Shown here: piece after piece, positions 4,078 to 17,145 of the stretch
Position numbering within the stretch: the first letter of the stretch is position 1
Layout: each line of letters opens with the position of its first letter
NCBI GenBank assembly: GCA_029945195.1
Contig: GCA_029945195.1_4117.1
Source of the DNA: a phage
DNA length: 64,000 bases
Strand: one strand, 5' to 3'
Notes under the pieces: generated by a model
Told to the model about the DNA's origin: nothing
The model's database searches: none
The model's input: only the letters and a program-made list of their open reading frames with translations
Position numbers and translations under genes: made by a program

Positions 4078-4854
4078 ATGGCAAATAACATGATTAATAA
4101 ATATGGCGTTCCTTTACCATCGGGGCGTAATCGTTCAATGCTACAACCGAAAGCAAAATACAAGTTTCGTGTTATTGTGTATAATTTCGGTACTGATATA
4201 GATGAACGTGATCACATCGCATTAGATGTTGATAAAATTGATAGACCTACTGTAACATTTAGTACTCATAAACTATATCAATTTACTACTAATACTTCCT
4301 ATATAGGTAGTCATGATTGGGAACCAATTACAATATCTATCCGTGATTCAGTTGGTAATGCATCAGCAAAAGCATTATCACGCCAATTACAAAAACAACT
4401 TGACTTTCAACGCAGAATAACTTCAAGAAGTGACCAAGATTATGGTTCTTATAAATTTGGCTTGGTTATACAGATGTTGAGTGGACGTAACTCAGATGAT
4501 ACACTAGGAAATCTAGGAAGAGATACTCTAGTAGATGCTGCAACTGCTGCAACAAATAATTCTGGCTTAGTAAATGCAGTAGATCAATTTATTGGTGGTT
4601 CTTCATATAACAGTGCTGGTGTTATGGAATACTTTGTTTTAACCGGATGTGTTATTCAAAACATATCATACGATTCATTAGATTATAGCTCAAGTTCTCC
4701 AGTTGAAATGGTAGTGACTATCAAACCAGATAATTGTATACAATTTGATAATATTGAAGAAATGTATAGTACCAGAATTAATTCACTTTTACCTGAAAAT
4801 GTCAATCAAGGTTTAGATATCATTGATCGTGTTTTTGGTAGTGTAGGATTTTAA
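4078..4854 (+). CDS. tail tube protein (paralog 2, with internal insertions)
   Basis: 258 aa; N-terminus M..NKYGVPLPSGRNRSMLQPKAKYKFRVIVYNFGT is collinear with ORF 3296..3982, and the IRDSVGNASAKAL motif is shared by both. Confidence 0.7.
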   Translation: MANNMINKYGVPLPSGRNRSMLQPKAKYKFRVIVYNFGTDIDERDHIALDVDKIDRPTVTFSTHKLYQFTTNTSYIGSHDWEPITISIRDSVGNASAKALSRQLQKQLDFQRRITSRSDQDYGSYKFGLVIQMLSGRNSDDTLGNLGRDTLVDAATAATNNSGLVNAVDQFIGGSSYNSAGVMEYFVLTGCVIQNISYDSLDYSSSSPVEMVVTIKPDNCIQFDNIEEMYSTRINSLLPENVNQGLDIIDRVFGSVGF

Positions 4855-4865
4855 GGAGATAATGA

Positions 4866-6973
<2,108 letters not shown>

Positions 6974-11712: not shown

Positions 11713-13038
11713 ATGACTACTCAAAACGATATCCTGAACGTTAAACTGACTCCAAAGAAAGCTAAAGAAGCAATGGCACTAGCTGACATGATTCAAGATA
11801 GCCTGATGATTTGGGGTAGCCCAGGTATCGGTAAGTCTGCAATCGCTCGTCAATACGCTGATGAAAATTACCCACTGCGTAAAGATAACGTAGCTAAAAT
11901 CGAGTTCATGAAACAACAAATCGAAGCTGACCCTGAAAATGCTGATCAGCTACGCCGTGAACTGGCTGCATTTGAAGCAAAACTAATCGACCAAGATACT
12001 AACTTTATCGATTTCCGTTTGTCTCAAATCGAACCAAGTGACCTTCGCGGTATTCCAGTACCAGAGAAGCTTTTCCGTAAAACTGACGGTTCTCTTCTGA
12101 AAGAATCTGAGCTTGCCGAAGCAAAAGATTATGTAGCTGAAACTGCGGTAGTATGGGCTGCACCTAAAGTTCTGAAATTGTCCGAAGATTGGAAAGGTGT
12201 TATTCTGTTTGACGAAATTAACTCTGCAATGCCTATTGTTCAGGCAGCGTCTTATCAGCTAATCCTCGACCGTTGTGTTGGTGAGATGAAGCTACCTAAG
12301 ACTGCACTGATTCTTGCAGCAGGTAACCGTGAAACTGATGGTGGTGTAACTTTCTCTCTTGCTACACCACTGCGTGACCGTATGACTCACATTGAGATGA
12401 TTCCTTATCATCAAGATTGGATTAACGATTATGCGATTGCAAAACGTTTGAACCCAGCAACTGTTGCGTTCATCAACAACACTGGTTCTAAGTACTTTAA
12501 CACACTTAGTCCACAAGATCCTTCTCACAGTGGTGGTACTTCTCCACGTTCATGGGAAGCAGTAGCACGCTACGAAGATCTCAAGAAAACTAAGACAATT
12601 GATAAAGAAGTGTTCCGTGCAATGATTGCTGGTCGTGTTGGTGAAGGTGTTGCAACTGAATACATTGAGTACGTTGAGAACGTTGCTAAACTACCAGATA
12701 CTATGTCTATTCTGTCTGGTGAAATCAAAGAAATCGACGCAACGCTGGATATTTCTGCGAACTACTTTATCACTCTGAACTTGGTTTATAAAATTATCGA
12801 CCTGTTCAATGAGAAGCAAGAACAACGTCTACCAGTGGAAGAATGGGGTAAACTGTGTAACAACTTCATCACCTTCCTAGACCATAACTTCTCTGCAACT
12901 CAAGCAGAACTGGCAGTACTGGCAATTCGTACCATCACGCTTCATAAGGTTGCGATTTCCATTAAAGATGTACCAGCGTTTAAAGATTTCATCGCTAAGT
13001 ACTCTGATCTTGTACGTAAAGCACGCTCTCTTGGCTAA
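11713..13038 (+). CDS. MoxR-like AAA+ ATPase
   Basis: 441 aa; Walker A GSPGIGKS, Walker B ILFDEIN, MoxR-type core followed by a C-terminal extension; codon usage differs from neighbours (CTG/CGT/GGT-rich). Confidence 0.8.
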   Translation: MTTQNDILNVKLTPKKAKEAMALADMIQDSLMIWGSPGIGKSAIARQYADENYPLRKDNVAKIEFMKQQIEADPENADQLRRELAAFEAKLIDQDTNFIDFRLSQIEPSDLRGIPVPEKLFRKTDGSLLKESELAEAKDYVAETAVVWAAPKVLKLSEDWKGVILFDEINSAMPIVQAASYQLILDRCVGEMKLPKTALILAAGNRETDGGVTFSLATPLRDRMTHIEMIPYHQDWINDYAIAKRLNPATVAFINNTGSKYFNTLSPQDPSHSGGTSPRSWEAVARYEDLKKTKTIDKEVFRAMIAGRVGEGVATEYIEYVENVAKLPDTMSILSGEIKEIDATLDISANYFITLNLVYKIIDLFNEKQEQRLPVEEWGKLCNNFITFLDHNFSATQAELAVLAIRTITLHKVAISIKDVPAFKDFIAKYSDLVRKARSLG

Positions 13039-13059
13039 TTAACAAAGAGTTGTTGACAA

Positions 13060-13090
13060 GAAGGATGCCTAATGGTATCCTTCTTTTATC
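13060..13090 (+). terminator. rho-independent terminator after the AAA+ ATPase gene
   Basis: 10-bp stem gaaggatgcc / ggtatccttc (one G-U), UAAU loop, then ttttatc. Confidence 0.6.
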
Positions 13091-13112
13091 TTAACTAAAC
13101 GAGGAAATATAC

Positions 13113-14537
13113 ATGTCAGATAACAAATCTACTTCAAGATTCAATGAAGTATCTCCGGCACTCCAGAAAGAATGTCAAGAACGTCTGGTTCTGGCTCGTA
13201 CATCTTTGATGTTAACTGCACCATTCTTTGGTGTACTCGCTTCACGTTTACGTCCAGTTCCTAATAATACATGGTGTCGTACTCTAGCAGTGGATGGTAA
13301 ACATCTATTCTACAACGTAGAATTTGTAATGGGCATTCAAGACCCATCTAAAAAGAAAGAATATGAAGAAGCTATTCGTGAAAAGCACCCTGAAGTTACA
13401 GACGAACAATTAAAAGAAATGACTGAAGGTTTGACTGATGAAAACCTTGTTGCTGTAATTTGTCATGAAATTCTACACTGTGCTTACGATCACTTCCTTC
13501 GTCGTGGTATGCGTGATCCACAACGTTATAACCGTGCAGCGGATTATGCCATTAACCAAATCATCGTTCGTGAGAAAATTGGGAAAATCCAAAGTTCATG
13601 GTTGTATGATAAAAAATATGAAGGCATGACCGCAGAAGAGATTTACATTCTTCTTGAAGAAGAAGAACAAAAAGAAGATGGTGAAGGTGAAGGTCAACCA
13701 CAAAGTGGCGGCGGTGAAGGTGAAGGTAAAAATCGCGGTACTTTTGGCGATATTAAAGATGGTAAGGGTAAACCAAAAGGTACTACCATTGACCAGCATG
13801 ACGTTCCACAAGAAGGTCAAGAGGGTGGTTCAAGTGAACAGCAAAAACGTGATTACATGGATGATTTCAAAACAGCAATGATGAATGCTGCTCGTGCAGG
13901 TGGTACACCAGCAGAAATCGCTCGTATGATTAACAACTTTAAAGAACCAAAGATTGACTGGCGTTCAAAACTTCAACGTACACTTCGTAGTTGGTTGAAG
14001 TCTGATGCAACATATCAAAATCCGAATCGTCGTTCTTGGGGTGCAGGTTTTGGTTCTAATGGCTCATTCTATGGTAATCCAATTTACCCAGGGATGAAAC
14101 CAGATGATGATATTGATATTGCGATTGCACTAGATGCTTCTGGGTCTATTTCTGAAGATATGCTTCGTGATTTCATTAGTGAAGTTCTTGGCATCACTAA
14201 ACAATTCAAACAGTTTAAGATTCGTATCATGACTTTTGATACTGAAGTTTATACTGTAAAGGATTACAAAACTGGCGAAGAACGTAAGATTCTGGAATAT
14301 CCAGTAAAAGGTGGTGGTGGTACTGACTTTGAAGCAGTATGGGTTCATATGAAGAACGACAACTATAAGCCTAAACAGCTTGTAATGTTTACTGATGGTG
14401 AACCGTGGCAGTCATGGGGTGATCCAAACTACTGTAAAACACTGTTCGTGATTCACAGTAACCCAAATAAAGTTGCACCATTTGGTGAGACTGTACACTA
14501 CGAATATGAAGCTGATAAAAAGCGTCAACGTAGTTAA
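13113..14537 (+). CDS. VWA-domain protein with N-terminal HExxH metallopeptidase-like domain
   Basis: 474 aa; HEILHCAYDH zincin-like motif, acidic/Gly-rich linker, C-terminal VWA domain with MIDAS-like DASGS and GGGGTD; architecture resembles the partners usually paired with MoxR ATPases. Confidence 0.75.
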   Translation: MSDNKSTSRFNEVSPALQKECQERLVLARTSLMLTAPFFGVLASRLRPVPNNTWCRTLAVDGKHLFYNVEFVMGIQDPSKKKEYEEAIREKHPEVTDEQLKEMTEGLTDENLVAVICHEILHCAYDHFLRRGMRDPQRYNRAADYAINQIIVREKIGKIQSSWLYDKKYEGMTAEEIYILLEEEEQKEDGEGEGQPQSGGGEGEGKNRGTFGDIKDGKGKPKGTTIDQHDVPQEGQEGGSSEQQKRDYMDDFKTAMMNAARAGGTPAEIARMINNFKEPKIDWRSKLQRTLRSWLKSDATYQNPNRRSWGAGFGSNGSFYGNPIYPGMKPDDDIDIAIALDASGSISEDMLRDFISEVLGITKQFKQFKIRIMTFDTEVYTVKDYKTGEERKILEYPVKGGGGTDFEAVWVHMKNDNYKPKQLVMFTDGEPWQSWGDPNYCKTLFVIHSNPNKVAPFGETVHYEYEADKKRQRS

Positions 14538-14549
14538 GTACTAAATAAT

Positions 14550-14580
14550 GAGAACGGAAAATTCCGTTCTCTTCTTTTAT
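14550..14580 (+). terminator. rho-independent terminator
   Basis: gagaacgg-aaaatt-ccgttctc hairpin followed by ttcttttat. Confidence 0.65.
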
Positions 14581-14584
14581 AAGT

Positions 14585-14612
14585 GGGACAACTTATAAAA
14601 ATATGATATAAT
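14585..14612 (+). promoter_or_regulatory. sigma70-type promoter (GGGACA-N16-TATAAT, extended -10)
   Basis: -10 TATAAT at 14607-14612 preceded by TGa; weaker -35 at 14585-14590. Confidence 0.5.
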
Positions 14613-14646
14613 AGTTAATGTACCAATATACATGGAGAGTATTAAA

Positions 14647-14925
14647 ATGGAACAAGAAAATAATCAAATTCAACTAACCCTTCTAGACCTAATCAATGCT
14701 GCAAAAATCATGGAAGCTGCTGTTGCACGAAACACCTTTAAAGTTGAAGAACTTGTTGAGGTTGCTCCAGTTGTATCTAAATTTGTTTCTTTTGCAAATG
14801 TAGCTCTTGAAGATATTAAAGCACAAGAAGATGCAGCTAAAGAAGAAGCTGAATCACAAGAAGATGCAGCTAAAGAAGAAGCTGAATCACAAGATAGTGA
14901 AACTCAAGAAGATAAAGGAGAATAA
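14647..14925 (+). CDS. small acidic protein with 11-aa tandem repeat
   Basis: ORF track starts at 14632, but the ATG at 14647 has a GGAGAG RBS 7 nt upstream; contains duplicated SQEDAAKEEAE. Confidence 0.5.
   Translation: MEQENNQIQLTLLDLINAAKIMEAAVARNTFKVEELVEVAPVVSKFVSFANVALEDIKAQEDAAKEEAESQEDAAKEEAESQDSETQEDKGE
14822..14894 (+). repeat. 33-bp direct tandem repeat (2 copies plus partial) inside the small ORF
   Basis: cacaagaagatgcagctaaagaagaagctgaat repeated exactly twice then a truncated copy; in frame. Confidence 0.85.
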
Positions 14926-14927
14926 TT

Positions 14928-15584
14928 ATGGCAGCTATTCGTCATGTTGGTGTAATGCGTAATACAGGTTCTCGTGTTTTTGTTGTTTGGCGTTCACTAC
15001 CAGATGATCCTGAACACTGCCTTATCGTTTATCGTGATTCACTACCAGAAGCATATGTACACGCAGTAACTGATATTGTTATGGGTCATGGTCAATCTAA
15101 TATTGATTTGTGGGAAGTAATGCATAAAATTGGTTATCTCGATGGACGCAAAATGCTAGATGTTCTACACAACATGCAGCATCTACGTCGCGTTCGTACT
15201 TGTGATATTGATATGCACACTGGTGGTAATAATAAAATTTCTCTTGATGTTCTAAACAAAGCATTAGATGAAAATCAAGCGAAAGTACAAGAAGATGGTA
15301 AAGTAAAAGACTTTAACCCATTCAATCCACAAGAAGCAGACACTAAAGTAGAAGAAGCTACTATTGTAGAACAACTTCTCACTGATGCACAAAAATATGA
15401 AAAACTGGCTAAAGAACATTATGAACGTGCATACAATTTAGAGCCAAGCTTGCGTCCGCAAACACAAGTTGTTGAACAACCGAAAGATAGTAAAACAATT
15501 TATCTAGAAATTCCAGAAGGTATTTCACAGACTAAAGCTATTGAGAAAGTAAAACAACTATTTGCAGAACGTAAAGCAAAATAA
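14928..15584 (+). CDS. hypothetical protein
   Basis: 218 aa; AGGAG RBS; no recognisable motif. Confidence 0.5.
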   Translation: MAAIRHVGVMRNTGSRVFVVWRSLPDDPEHCLIVYRDSLPEAYVHAVTDIVMGHGQSNIDLWEVMHKIGYLDGRKMLDVLHNMQHLRRVRTCDIDMHTGGNNKISLDVLNKALDENQAKVQEDGKVKDFNPFNPQEADTKVEEATIVEQLLTDAQKYEKLAKEHYERAYNLEPSLRPQTQVVEQPKDSKTIYLEIPEGISQTKAIEKVKQLFAERKAK

Positions 15585-15587
15585 AAT

Positions 15588-16181
15588 ATGAAAAAGAATG
15601 AATTAGATGAAGCAATTAAAGGTTTATCTAATGTATGTTTTAGTGGCGGGGCAGCAGGTGCTGACCGCCTTTTTTCTATCTATGCAAAAAATAATGGATT
15701 TGAAGTTATTAATTTTTCATTCAAAGGTCATGAGCATAGTGTAGATGAAAGTACTATATTAGAAATACCATCCAATATTCTATCTGATATTTCTATATTA
15801 AATCAACTAAACATTGCATGTTACTCGTTGCAGCGAAAAGTACCAAAACCTGGTTCTTATGTTTACAACTTACTTGCAAGGAATAGTTATCAGATACTTA
15901 ATACAGAAAGAATATATTGTATTGCAAATATCACATCACCAACTAAGGTAAGTGGTGGTACTGCATGGGCAGTACAGATGTATATGGATTCAGTTGAAAA
16001 TCCTGAAATTTATTGTTATGATATGAATTCACGTTCAGTATTTTATTTCGATACAGTACTGAAAGAGTTCACACAAACATTCGTCGTTCCAGCACCACAT
16101 GGTAACTGGACTGGTATTGGTTCACGCAATGCCACCGAAAAACATATGGAACATTTTATTACATTTTTCAAGGAAGAATAA
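15588..16181 (+). CDS. SLOG-like Rossmann-fold protein (DprA/LOG/YpsA-like)
   Basis: 197 aa; N-terminal FSGGAAGAD motif typical of the SLOG superfamily (inference from motif only); stop overlaps the start of the ThyA-family gene. Confidence 0.4.
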   Translation: MKKNELDEAIKGLSNVCFSGGAAGADRLFSIYAKNNGFEVINFSFKGHEHSVDESTILEIPSNILSDISILNQLNIACYSLQRKVPKPGSYVYNLLARNSYQILNTERIYCIANITSPTKVSGGTAWAVQMYMDSVENPEIYCYDMNSRSVFYFDTVLKEFTQTFVVPAPHGNWTGIGSRNATEKHMEHFITFFKEE

Positions 16182-17110
16182 TGAAACAACTACAAGAACT
16201 ATATCAAAAAATTCTAGATGAAGGCGTAGAAAGCGTTGACCGTACTGGTGTTGGAACAATCAAACTTATCGGTCAACAAATGCGTTTTGACCTTAAAGAT
16301 GGTTTCCCAGCAGTGACGACAAAACGTCTAGCTTGGAAAGCAATGACTTCAGAATTACTATGGTTTATTGAAGGTTCCCATGATGAGCGTCGCCTTTGTG
16401 AAATTTTGCATGGAACTCGTGATACAGAAAAGAAAACTATTTGGACAGATAATTACCTAAATCAAGGCGTTGCTCTTGGTTATACTGATGGTGAGTTAGG
16501 TCCAGTGTATGGTAAGCAATGGCGTGAATGGGAAGATTATAAATTTAGTTCCAGTACTGAAGAAATTCAAGAATTAAAAGATAAAGGATACAAAGTTATC
16601 GATTATACTGGTTCACATGGTGTTGTTATGAAACGTACAACTGACCAATTACAAGAACTAATCAAAGGTATAAAGTCCGATCCATATGGCCGTCGCCACA
16701 TTCTAAGTGCATGGAACGTTGGTGAGCTTGATGATATGACGTTACCACCTTGTCATAGCTTTGTGCAATTTTGTGTAGTGCAAGGAAAACTAAGCTGTAT
16801 TCTGCATCAACGCTCCGCTGATCTATTTTTAGGAGTTCCATTTAATATCAGTAGTTACTCACTACTAACTCATATGATTGCACAAATTACTGGTTTAGAT
16901 GTTGGTGAATTTATTTGGAATGGTGGTGATTGTCACATTTATAAAAACCACGTTGAACAAGTAAAAGAACAACTACAGCGAAAACCTCGTGAATTACCTG
17001 AATTGTGGCTTGATCCTACAATTACTAATATTGAAGATTTCACTATGGATTCTTTTAAATTAGTGAATTACAACCCAATGCCAACAATTAAAGCACCTAT
17101 GGCTGTATAA
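16181..17110 (+). CDS. thyA: thymidylate synthase family protein (ThyA-like; dUMP hydroxymethylase not excluded)
   Basis: 309 aa; ThyA hallmarks DRTGVGT, GPVYGKQWR, SAWNVGELD, catalytic PCH, QRSADLFLGVPFNISSY and C-terminal KAPMAV; ~29-aa insertion after GKQWREW. Confidence 0.85.
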   Translation: MKQLQELYQKILDEGVESVDRTGVGTIKLIGQQMRFDLKDGFPAVTTKRLAWKAMTSELLWFIEGSHDERRLCEILHGTRDTEKKTIWTDNYLNQGVALGYTDGELGPVYGKQWREWEDYKFSSSTEEIQELKDKGYKVIDYTGSHGVVMKRTTDQLQELIKGIKSDPYGRRHILSAWNVGELDDMTLPPCHSFVQFCVVQGKLSCILHQRSADLFLGVPFNISSYSLLTHMIAQITGLDVGEFIWNGGDCHIYKNHVEQVKEQLQRKPRELPELWLDPTITNIEDFTMDSFKLVNYNPMPTIKAPMAV

Positions 17111-17112
17111 AC

Positions 17113-17145
17113 GAAAAGGGAGAACATCAGTTCTCCCTTTTTTAT
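17113..17145. terminator. bidirectional rho-independent terminator between convergent genes
   Basis: aagggagaac-atca-gttctccctt hairpin flanked by an A-tract upstream and a T-tract downstream. Confidence 0.75.

Follow-up and report, generated by a model that had tools for sequence, protein, structure and literature searches.

Enzymes with the thymidylate synthase (TS) fold are found in pathways other than thymidylate synthesis, as in mildiomycin biosynthesis, where the MilA/MilB pair combines a TS-fold hydroxymethylase with a nucleotide-processing partner. In other phages, TS-fold enzymes make hydroxymethyl-pyrimidines (PMC7824862). Among proteins of the SLOG superfamily, DprA is marked by two signatures of its single-stranded DNA (ssDNA) pocket, G-S/T/A-R and F/L/Y-x-x-R-N/D (Wang et al. 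2014, PMC3950713), and the YpsA clade by a GxD/E substrate-binding signature (PMC6459960). For viral members, Iyer et al. 2021 suggested that the DprA/Smf proteins of jumbo phages may be additional ssDNA binders, and Iyer, Burroughs, Anantharaman and Aravind (Iyer et al. 2022, PMC9503650) classed most viral SLOGs as YpsA-like, with sporadic fusions to helicase and guanylate kinase, and predicted that they sense or degrade immune signals derived from ADP-ribose (ADPR). Here we analyse a 64,000-nucleotide stretch of phage DNA (GenBank assembly GCA_029945195.1, contig GCA_029945195.1_4117.1; hereafter the window), in which the gene for a 197-amino-acid SLOG protein runs end to start into the gene for a ThyA-family enzyme. 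The initial annotation of this pair had proposed a coupled step of pyrimidine modification or salvage rather than plain synthesis of dTMP. The phage is closely related to Escherichia phage 121Q, a jumbo myovirus of Rak2-like type (Asteriusvirus). Between positions 15000 and 17500 the window shares 99.9% identity with 121Q, SHEFM2K, phAPEC6 and others, and the two open reading frames (ORFs) correspond to 121Q genes 567 and 568.

Our analysis indicates that the ThyA homologue is, judged by its sequence, an ordinary thymidylate synthase. The best overall reading of the locus, which we favour tentatively and with slightly less than even confidence, combines plain dTMP synthesis with a nucleotide-gripping SLOG protein whose likeliest role is that of an accessory in the supply of deoxynucleoside triphosphates (dNTPs) from deoxynucleoside monophosphates (dNMPs). 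The synthase is of a kind already known, and the SLOG protein adds a member to a family that has been catalogued but is uncharacterised.

Results

The ThyA homologue

Both ORFs, their TAATG overlap and the motifs named in the initial annotation were recovered when coordinates and motifs were rechecked. The features concerned are as follows.

15588-16181, + strand: gene for the 197-amino-acid SLOG protein (121Q gene 567), a single domain of DprA/YpsA type with an apparent circular permutation (phrog_768, AlphaFold2 model); third gene of a four-gene block
16179-16183, + strand: TAATG stop/start overlap of the SLOG gene and thyA, with TAA at 16179-16181 and ATG at 16181-16183 sharing one base
16181-17110, + strand: gene for the predicted thymidylate synthase ThyA, 309 amino acids, 121Q gene 568 (PF00303, NCBIfam, alignment to 2tsc); fourth gene of the block
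16535-16633, + strand: 33-residue insertion in the TS small domain, residues 119-151 (similarity to the 3v8h insertion; NF010393 alignment)

The ThyA homologue matched Pfam PF00303 with E = 8e-102 (340.4 bits; cut-off 24.3) and exceeded the cut-offs of the NCBIfam equivalogs NF002497 (342.9 versus 327) and TIGR03284 (326.8 versus 108.35), and a PHROGs search with it returned TS families only. HMMER aligned it end to end with Escherichia coli TS (2tsc), and residue by residue this alignment retained all the TS hallmarks that had been claimed for it. The catalytic Cys-His pair is kept (C191/H192, equivalent to E. coli C146/H147), as are the phosphate-binding arginines (R21, R171, R172 and R211 for E. 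coli R21, R126', R127' and R166), the dUMP-selecting Asn (N222 for E. coli N177), the folate and hydride-transfer residues E58, W88 (E. coli W80), Y110 (Y94) and D214 (D169), and H252 and Y254 (E. coli H207 and Y209); Q210, R211 and S212 are likewise present, and the C-terminus KAPMAV ends at the same residue as KAPVAI of the E. coli enzyme. The corresponding motifs are GPVYGKQWR (Tyr110), PPCH (Cys191) and PFNISSY (Asn222). The substitution of Asp for Asn that marks dCMP hydroxymethylases is absent at Asn222. In a search against phage genomes, the protein was 44-46% identical to T4 td and T5 thyA. The only match labelled 'pyrimidine hmase' was 25% identical, and a match in a ViI-like phage that covered a third of the query was 26% identical; by identity, the protein is not closer to hydroxymethylases than to proven TS.

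The insertion of about 29 amino acids that had been noted initially was also found, comprising 33 residues against 4 in E. coli ThyA, a net gain of 29; approximately 16 further extra residues lie between residues 68 and 103. When the insertion and its flanks were compared with solved structures, the best match was the TS 3v8h (327 amino acids), whose insertion is similar in sequence ('sRGFRIVarfeeGGadkVLLhKaiDQL' aligned with 'dKGYKVIdytGShGVVMkRttDQL'), and the long-form TS profile NF010393 spans the whole of ThyA in one stretch, insertion included. This similarity and the unbroken alignment identify the insertion, at the level of sequence, as a known long-form variant of the TS small domain, which would not be a sign of new chemistry.

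The gene content of the phage points in the same direction. The 121Q genome encodes dihydrofolate reductase (DHFR, gene 42), ribonucleotide reductase and a MazG-like enzyme. DHFR is needed only where dihydrofolate is made, which is done by TS and not by hydroxymethylases, so its presence argues for a true TS. The relatives RaK2 and CBB have been described with DHFR, dCMP deaminase, thymidine kinase and dNMP kinase, and the authors of the RaK2 study reported no homologues of dCMP hydroxymethylase or glucosyltransferase; for RaK2 DNA, only methylation was reported, from restriction and bisulfite data that its authors did not show. The window ThyA appears from these comparisons to be an ordinary, canonical thymidylate synthase, which would methylate dUMP to dTMP with methylene-tetrahydrofolate and release dihydrofolate to be recycled by the phage's own DHFR.

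The proposed modified-base module

In the initial proposal, the SLOG protein and the ThyA homologue would act as one coupled unit in the synthesis or processing of a modified pyrimidine nucleotide. Examples of such a unit would be the synthesis of 5-hydroxymethyldeoxyuridine monophosphate with subsequent glycosidic processing, as in MilA/MilB, or the hydroxymethylases that serve phages with hypermodified bases. The TAATG overlap does permit translational coupling, SLOG/LOG enzymes are established to cleave nucleotide N-glycosidic bonds, the TS fold serves hydroxymethylation in the phages mentioned above, and the dUMP-selecting Asn would equally suit a dUMP hydroxymethylase. We nevertheless regard such a module as very improbable. 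The enzyme stands above the TS equivalog cut-offs with its full hydride-transfer apparatus and C-terminus, lies far nearer to proven TS genes than to annotated hydroxymethylases, shares its insertion with a solved TS and occurs in a genome with DHFR, whereas its SLOG neighbour lacks the LOG catalytic Glu (see below). The four-gene block holds no gene for a glycosyltransferase, a 5-hydroxymethyldeoxyuridine kinase or a similar enzyme, and the report of methylation only for RaK2 DNA also speaks against the module.

The gene order offers no support for coupling either. We sampled 79 viral loci encoding SLOG relatives, 14 of them Rak2-like and 65 other. Every Rak2-like locus (14 of 14; SLOG identity 49% or more) had a nearby ThyA, but in the 65 viral loci outside this clade there was no ThyA within 5 kb of the SLOG gene. 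Inside the clade itself, an ORF of 87-125 amino acids (phrog_22463) separates the two genes in 11 of the 14 loci, two small ORFs do so in Xanthomonas phage XaC1 and one in a more distant relative, and the direct overlap is limited to the 121Q and RaK2 lineages. The adjacency of thyA is therefore synteny inherited within Rak2-like phages and not a conserved two-enzyme module, and neither the end-to-start overlap as a sign of coupling nor a family-wide pairing of SLOG and ThyA can be upheld. A module of the MilA/MilB or hydroxymethylase kind was rejected on the canonical character of ThyA, the missing LOG Glu of the SLOG protein and the clade-restricted pairing. Of the initial idea that the SLOG protein is linked to nucleotide processing, the part concerning synthesis of a modified pyrimidine falls away; a looser link to nucleotide metabolism remains plausible, because the family tends to adjoin genes for dNMP kinase, ThyA and dCMP deaminase.

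Fold and conserved pocket of the SLOG protein

The gene for the 197-amino-acid protein is real, with 106 homologues in a set of 5.8 billion proteins, and its product matches phrog_768 'DprA-like' with E = 1e-26, the full RefSeq and PHROG name being 'DprA-like DNA recombination-mediator protein'. Neither the protein nor the family profile found a meaningful sequence match in the PDB, and only fold comparison was productive. The AlphaFold2 model is a single domain (pLDDT 97) with a three-layer alpha/beta fold like that of LOG, DprA and YpsA, and the structures closest to it were 3imk (score 12.4), a type-II LOG (7.9), TT1465 (7.8), ShosA (7.5), YgdH (7.3), DprA (three entries, about 7), YpsA (7.0) and the Chlamydomonas molybdenum cofactor carrier protein (6.6). 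Every listed match is of SLOG type, and Foldseek also ranks 3imk first. We take 3imk to be the structural prototype of the Pfam family cpYpsA and a member of PF12694. It is described as a 'putative molybdenum carrier protein' of Syntrophus aciditrophicus. The model thus assigns to the protein, in agreement with the initial annotation, a predicted SLOG fold, which is of the DprA/YpsA type.

Four short elements account for the likeness to DprA, YpsA and LOG.

15642-15665, + strand: glycine-rich loop after the first strand, S19-G-G-A-A-G-A-D26, with S19, G20, A22, G24 and D26 invariant
15870-15884, + strand: L95-L-A-R98-N99, corresponding to DprA pocket motif 2, F/L/Y-x-x-R-N/D; pattern in 66/66 members
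15951-15977, + strand: second glycine-rich loop, S122-G-G-T-A-W-A-V-Q130, with Q130 at the position of the LOG catalytic Glu of PGGxGTxxE
16119-16127, + strand: G178-S179-R180, corresponding to DprA pocket motif 1, G-S/T/A-R, at the C-terminus; pattern in 66/66 members

The family alignment on which these statements rest contains 66 sequences, with identity down to 24%, and 15 residues are invariant across it. The two glycine-rich loops, SGGAxGAD (19-26) and GGTAWA (123-128), are invariant or nearly so; the first lies within the FSGGAAGAD motif (residues 18-26) recognized initially, and its G24-A-D26 constitutes the GxD signature of the YpsA clade, invariant in the family. Position 130 is Q in 59 members, E in 6 and V in 1. 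The strand bearing G-S-R occupies residues 174-180, and the best match in sequence order is 3imk; in the model, the C-terminus apparently supplies what would otherwise be the first Rossmann strand, an arrangement known from the cpYpsA family. An additional element of the model is a three-stranded beta insertion at residues 141-164. With an isoelectric point (pI) of 5.75 (family median 6.6), the protein is acidic. A C-terminal extension of approximately 100 residues in some relatives (P0072, P0084) had no Pfam match.

Tests against the individual SLOG families gave a mixed outcome. The protein scored 20.2 bits against PF10686 (YAcAr), under the cut-off of 28.2, and 17 of the 66 members gave sub-threshold matches. 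PF12694 did not match it and matched only two relatives weakly; PF03641 (LOG) matched neither the protein nor any family member; and PF02481 (DprA) matched 2 of 66 members weakly (best E = 0.006), the 197-amino-acid protein itself being below threshold. No sequence or fold match was obtained for the protein with nucleoside 2-deoxyribosyltransferase, Rcl or MilB-type hydrolases. Among the comparisons suggested at the outset, that with nucleoside 2-deoxyribosyltransferases thus finds nothing in its favour, and that with LOG fails at the catalytic glutamate. The comparison with DprA is borne out by the fold match and by both pocket motifs throughout the family, but not by the PF02481 threshold, by the significance of profile-profile alignment or by the accessory domains of DprA.

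Because the loops that form the one-nucleotide ssDNA pocket of Helicobacter pylori DprA are kept (SGGAxGAD, L-x-x-R-N and G-S-R), we infer that the 197-amino-acid protein would grip one nucleotide or deoxynucleotide, its base sitting in the pocket and its phosphate held by R98 and R180. The absence of the LOG catalytic glutamate makes a binder or sensor more likely, as far as the sequence can tell, than an N-glycosidase of the LOG type.

Gene neighbourhoods and the preferred reading

The most frequent partner of the SLOG gene is a dNMP kinase of the T4 gp1 type (PF21448, phrog_139), which is adjacent in 32 of 58 non-Rak2 viral loci, in several flanking arrangements and with the reverse order in two loci. 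Independent contig look-ups found it adjacent in four of eight cases, often with overlapping stop and start codons. The usual order is dNMP kinase, SLOG, tail sheath, for example in Agrobacterium phage Atu_ph07, Sinorhizobium phage Phosso and many phages known from metagenomes. The same kinase is present at the very beginning of the window:

1-141, + strand: 3' end of the dNMP kinase gene (121Q gene 550, by 121Q annotation; the frame-0 translation ends ...HESEWAWIG...YSNT*)

This fragment shows homology to cluster C1, itself a match to PF21448 DNMK and phrog_139. Next comes the tail sheath gene (about 237-2900). The kinase gene is 15 kb upstream of the SLOG gene, which in Rak2-like phages seems to have moved approximately 15 kb downstream, next to thyA. 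A dCMP deaminase gene lies within 3 kb of the SLOG gene in two further contexts, and PurA, PRTase_3, NAD synthetase and dUTPase are among its other neighbours.

Given that the neighbours include dNMP kinase, ThyA and dCMP deaminase and that the protein is acidic, the most likely ligand would be a free nucleoside or deoxynucleoside 5'-monophosphate. That the protein binds such a ligand and acts as an accessory factor in the phage's conversion of dNMPs to dNTPs is a real possibility, if somewhat less than probable. More doubtful is the extension to the whole family, in which the SLOG proteins would be an unrecognised dNMP-binding, perhaps thymidylate-binding, partner or regulator working with dNMP kinase, thymidylate synthase and dCMP deaminase; in that case, the pocket that holds a nucleotide of DNA in DprA would have been reused to hold a free nucleotide.

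A number of observations weigh against this reading. In the literature, we found no experimental work on the SLOG family and no measured ligand or activity for any member. The residue equivalences with DprA and LOG come from motif order and predicted secondary structure. Comparison of the family profile with E. coli Smf and with a 17-sequence alignment of Enterobacteriaceae DprA yielded nothing significant, that alignment being narrow (68-99% identity; hhalign probability about 0.1), and single-sequence hhalign to DprA gave only a local match at the R-N motif, a hint that does not amount to evidence. Linkage to dNMP kinase is phylogenetically concentrated, with single-linkage clustering at 50% identity or more placing 29 of the 32 adjacent loci in a single group, and part of it may be inherited gene order, because dNMP kinase sits among tail genes, as in T4. 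Moreover, some contexts of the SLOG domain suggest other roles. The gene adjoins a histidine phosphatase gene, and in P0150 the domain is fused to a histidine phosphatase; single loci place it next to Nudix (L053) or KptA (L091); it stands between dCMP deaminase and an NMNAT-Nudix plus NAMPT pair for NAD salvage (L090, L094/L095); it is followed in a metagenomic phage by the Acb1 anti-CBASS gene (PF23474, E = 5e-33; L077, 5025-6230); and in Caulobacter phage Cr30 it comes after the gene for the gp46/47 recombination nuclease. The domain also occurs approximately 85 residues upstream of a NADAR domain in the 2,942-amino-acid protein P0208, inside the 4,329-amino-acid protein gp38 of crAss-like phage cr113_1 (L082, 4001-4477) and, in the N4-like Klebsiella phage Pylas (L083, 4001-4492), within the virion RNA polymerase.

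Counter-defence as an alternative

Much of this list fits a role in counter-defence, in which the SLOG protein would bind or degrade an immune signal or toxin that the host derives from nucleotides, for example ADPR, a cyclic ADPR isomer or a related molecule, and ThyA would be an unrelated neighbour. This is the prediction made for viral YpsA-like SLOGs in PMC9503650. The giant proteins, which include P0219 and P0248 and range from 2,900 to 4,300 amino acids, look like injected polyvalent proteins, and two other products of the four-gene block are virion-associated in phAPEC6. The NADAR-bearing protein and the single-locus neighbours Acb1, Nudix, KptA and NMNAT-Nudix with NAMPT, together with the gene for an ART-PolyVal-like protein near the SLOG gene in locus L074, also suit such a role, as does Q130 in place of a catalytic Glu, which would befit a sponge or sensor. 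On the other hand, no Macro, NADAR or ADP-ribosyltransferase (ART) gene lies beside the SLOG gene in the window, where the nearest Nudix gene is approximately 15 kb away; the commonest partner in the family is a housekeeping-type dNMP kinase; the pocket motifs match the DNA-nucleotide site of DprA and not a documented ADPR site; and known sponges are early products, whereas this gene is surrounded by genes of late morphogenesis. We consider counter-defence unlikely on balance.

Family distribution and ssDNA binding as an alternative

A profile search of 1.84 billion representatives returned 2,808 cluster representatives at E <= 1e-3. The members are mostly stand-alone proteins of 175-210 amino acids. 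In 185,579 species genomes of cellular organisms, we found 13 loci, 11 of which are in Flavobacteriaceae; the family is thus phage-borne and almost absent from cellular genomes. In the Flavobacteriaceae loci (L102-L112; Flavobacterium, Myroides and Paenimyroides), the SLOG gene is always followed by an HTH-WYL-WCX regulator gene, and in the one locus examined (L105, 4986-6482) miaB and topA flank this cassette. Defence and DNA-damage genes are common targets of WYL regulators, and the pairing may therefore be an independent clue to the ligand.

The pairing with this regulator next to topA is also among the arguments that the SLOG protein binds ssDNA through its conserved pocket, as DprA does, and protects it or hands it to a phage recombinase of the RecA/UvsX type. 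The name given by PHROG 768 and RefSeq implies as much, both DprA signature motifs are present throughout the family, the gene follows the gp46/47 nuclease in Cr30, and helicase fusions of the domain exist (in BFVD and in PMC9503650); the suggestion of Iyer et al. 2021 for jumbo-phage DprA/Smf proteins was of this kind. However, the 197-amino-acid protein lacks the SAM and winged-helix domains of DprA, falls short of the PF02481 threshold in a family with only two weak matches and no significant profile-profile alignment, and has a pI that would be unusual for a DNA-coating protein. 121Q, moreover, already has genes for a RecA-like recombinase, a UvsY mediator and a ssDNA-binding protein elsewhere, and the SLOG gene is near none of them but in the late structural block and beside a gene of nucleotide metabolism. 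Such a function seems rather improbable to us, and binding of a free nucleotide remains the reading that we prefer.

In Cr30 (L081, 3998-5055), a peptide deformylase gene directly follows the SLOG gene. In E. coli K-12 (L115, 4437-6200), smf (dprA) adjoins def, and the putative topoisomerase gene yrdD is two genes away; in the Flavobacteriaceae relatives, topA is close to the SLOG gene. These neighbours shared with dprA loci may be a coincidence or a trace of common ancestry.

The gene block and its surroundings

The SLOG gene and thyA form the end of a block of four genes, homologues of 121Q genes 565-566-567-568, at window positions 14632-17110, with gaps of 2, 3 and -1 nucleotides. The features of the block other than the two genes described above are the following.

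14550-14571, + strand: terminator-like hairpin closing the upstream MoxR-ATPase/VWA gene pair (9-bp stem with 5 G-C pairs, T-rich tail)
14585-14612, + strand: sigma-70-like promoter match ahead of the block (GGGACA, 16 nucleotides, TATAAT, with TG; a consensus match only)
14632-14925, + strand: first gene, for a 97-amino-acid acidic protein (121Q gene 565 homologue, phrog_13789), containing a 33-nucleotide tandem repeat
14928-15584, + strand: second gene, for a 218-amino-acid protein without assigned function (121Q gene 566, phrog_15894; ORF and PHROG match)
17113-17142, + strand: strong terminator-like hairpin closing the block, between thyA and convergent tail-fibre genes (13-bp stem, then a T-run)

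With terminator-like sites on both sides, the SLOG gene and thyA are predicted to be the end of one four-gene transcription unit. A Shine-Dalgarno-like AAGGAAG lies just 5' of the TAATG overlap. The T4-type late promoter TATAAATA had only three matches in the window, none of them near the block, which is rarer than expected by chance. The block sits in the morphogenesis region, and the convergent tail-fibre genes start beyond its 3' hairpin. In the first gene, the exact 33-nucleotide tandem repeat (14822-14894) comprises 2.2 copies, or 2.8 at 91%, and the window has one copy (11 amino acids, EDAAKEEAESQ) more than the 121Q RefSeq; several further small indels upstream also set the window apart from 121Q.

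Directly upstream of the block (11713-14537) are genes for a MoxR-type AAA ATPase and for a 474-amino-acid protein, for which the PHROGs and RefSeq label 'HNH endonuclease' looks wrong, because it corresponds to a DUF2201/VWA-type protein ('N4 gp25-like' in phAPEC6).

Mass spectrometry of purified phAPEC6 virions has identified thymidylate synthase gp259c (3 peptides), the 218-amino-acid protein gp262c (1 peptide) and the MoxR-type ATPase gp265c (6 peptides) (PMC7247149), which are orthologues of the products of window positions 16181-17110, 14928-15584 and 11713-13038, respectively. The phAPEC6 record (MK817115.1, locus 4520-5094) splits the SLOG gene into gp261c and gp260c, although the DNA encodes an intact protein with 100% identity to that of the window. 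The absence of the SLOG protein from the virion proteome is therefore uninformative, because the split annotation left the intact protein out of the search database, and we rejected the use of these proteomic data as an argument against its packaging.

Discussion

Our results indicate that jumbo phages of the 121Q type make thymidylate in the ordinary way and that this locus gives no reason to expect exotic bases in their DNA, which is relevant to sequencing, restriction analysis and phage-therapy work on these phages. What remains of interest is a large phage-specific family with a sharply conserved nucleotide pocket of the DprA type, for which three signals stand out: its placement beside dNMP kinase, often with translational coupling, its occurrence in giant virion proteins and its pairing with WYL regulators in Flavobacteriaceae.

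Among known systems, the arrangement recalls T4 gp42, the phage dUMP hydroxymethylases and MilA/MilB, in which a TS-fold enzyme likewise stands beside a Rossmann-like nucleotide-processing protein. The window ThyA differs from the enzymes of these modules in having Asn instead of Asp, TS equivalog scores and a genome with DHFR, and the partner differs from that of MilA in being a SLOG protein of the DprA/YpsA type instead of a hydrolase of the MilB or deoxyribosyltransferase type. The true counterparts of the enzyme would be E. coli ThyA (2tsc), T4 td and T5 thyA, with which it shares the fold family, the catalytic, dUMP and folate residues and the C-terminal end. It is 45 residues longer than E. 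coli ThyA, and its 33-residue insertion has its likeness in the long-form TS 3v8h. The neighbours of its gene are tail and structural genes, and the orthologue in phAPEC6 is found in purified virions, which brings to mind the older and debated reports that placed TS and DHFR in the T4 baseplate.

For the SLOG protein, the comparison leads to several families at once. cpYpsA (PF12694), itself likewise without assigned function, matches two relatives weakly but not the 197-amino-acid protein, which differs from it by the three-stranded beta insertion. With DprA/Smf (PF02481; H. pylori DprA 4ljk), the family shares the SG-x-A-x-G-x-D loop and both ssDNA-pocket motifs; in contrast to DprA, however, the window protein has its G-S-R strand at the C-terminus and not the N-terminus, is an acidic single domain without the SAM and winged-helix (DML1) domains, and is encoded in a nucleotide-metabolism or virion setting and not in one of competence or recombination. 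In comparison with LOG, it appears to be circularly permuted and is without a PF03641 match, and the catalytic Glu of PGGxGTxxE is Gln in most of the family. With LOG/PpnN (PF03641), the family nevertheless shares the order of the two glycine-rich loops and of a conserved Arg on the helix before, and the LOG/PpnN enzymes act on nucleoside monophosphates, as do the enzymes encoded by the genomic neighbours of the SLOG family.

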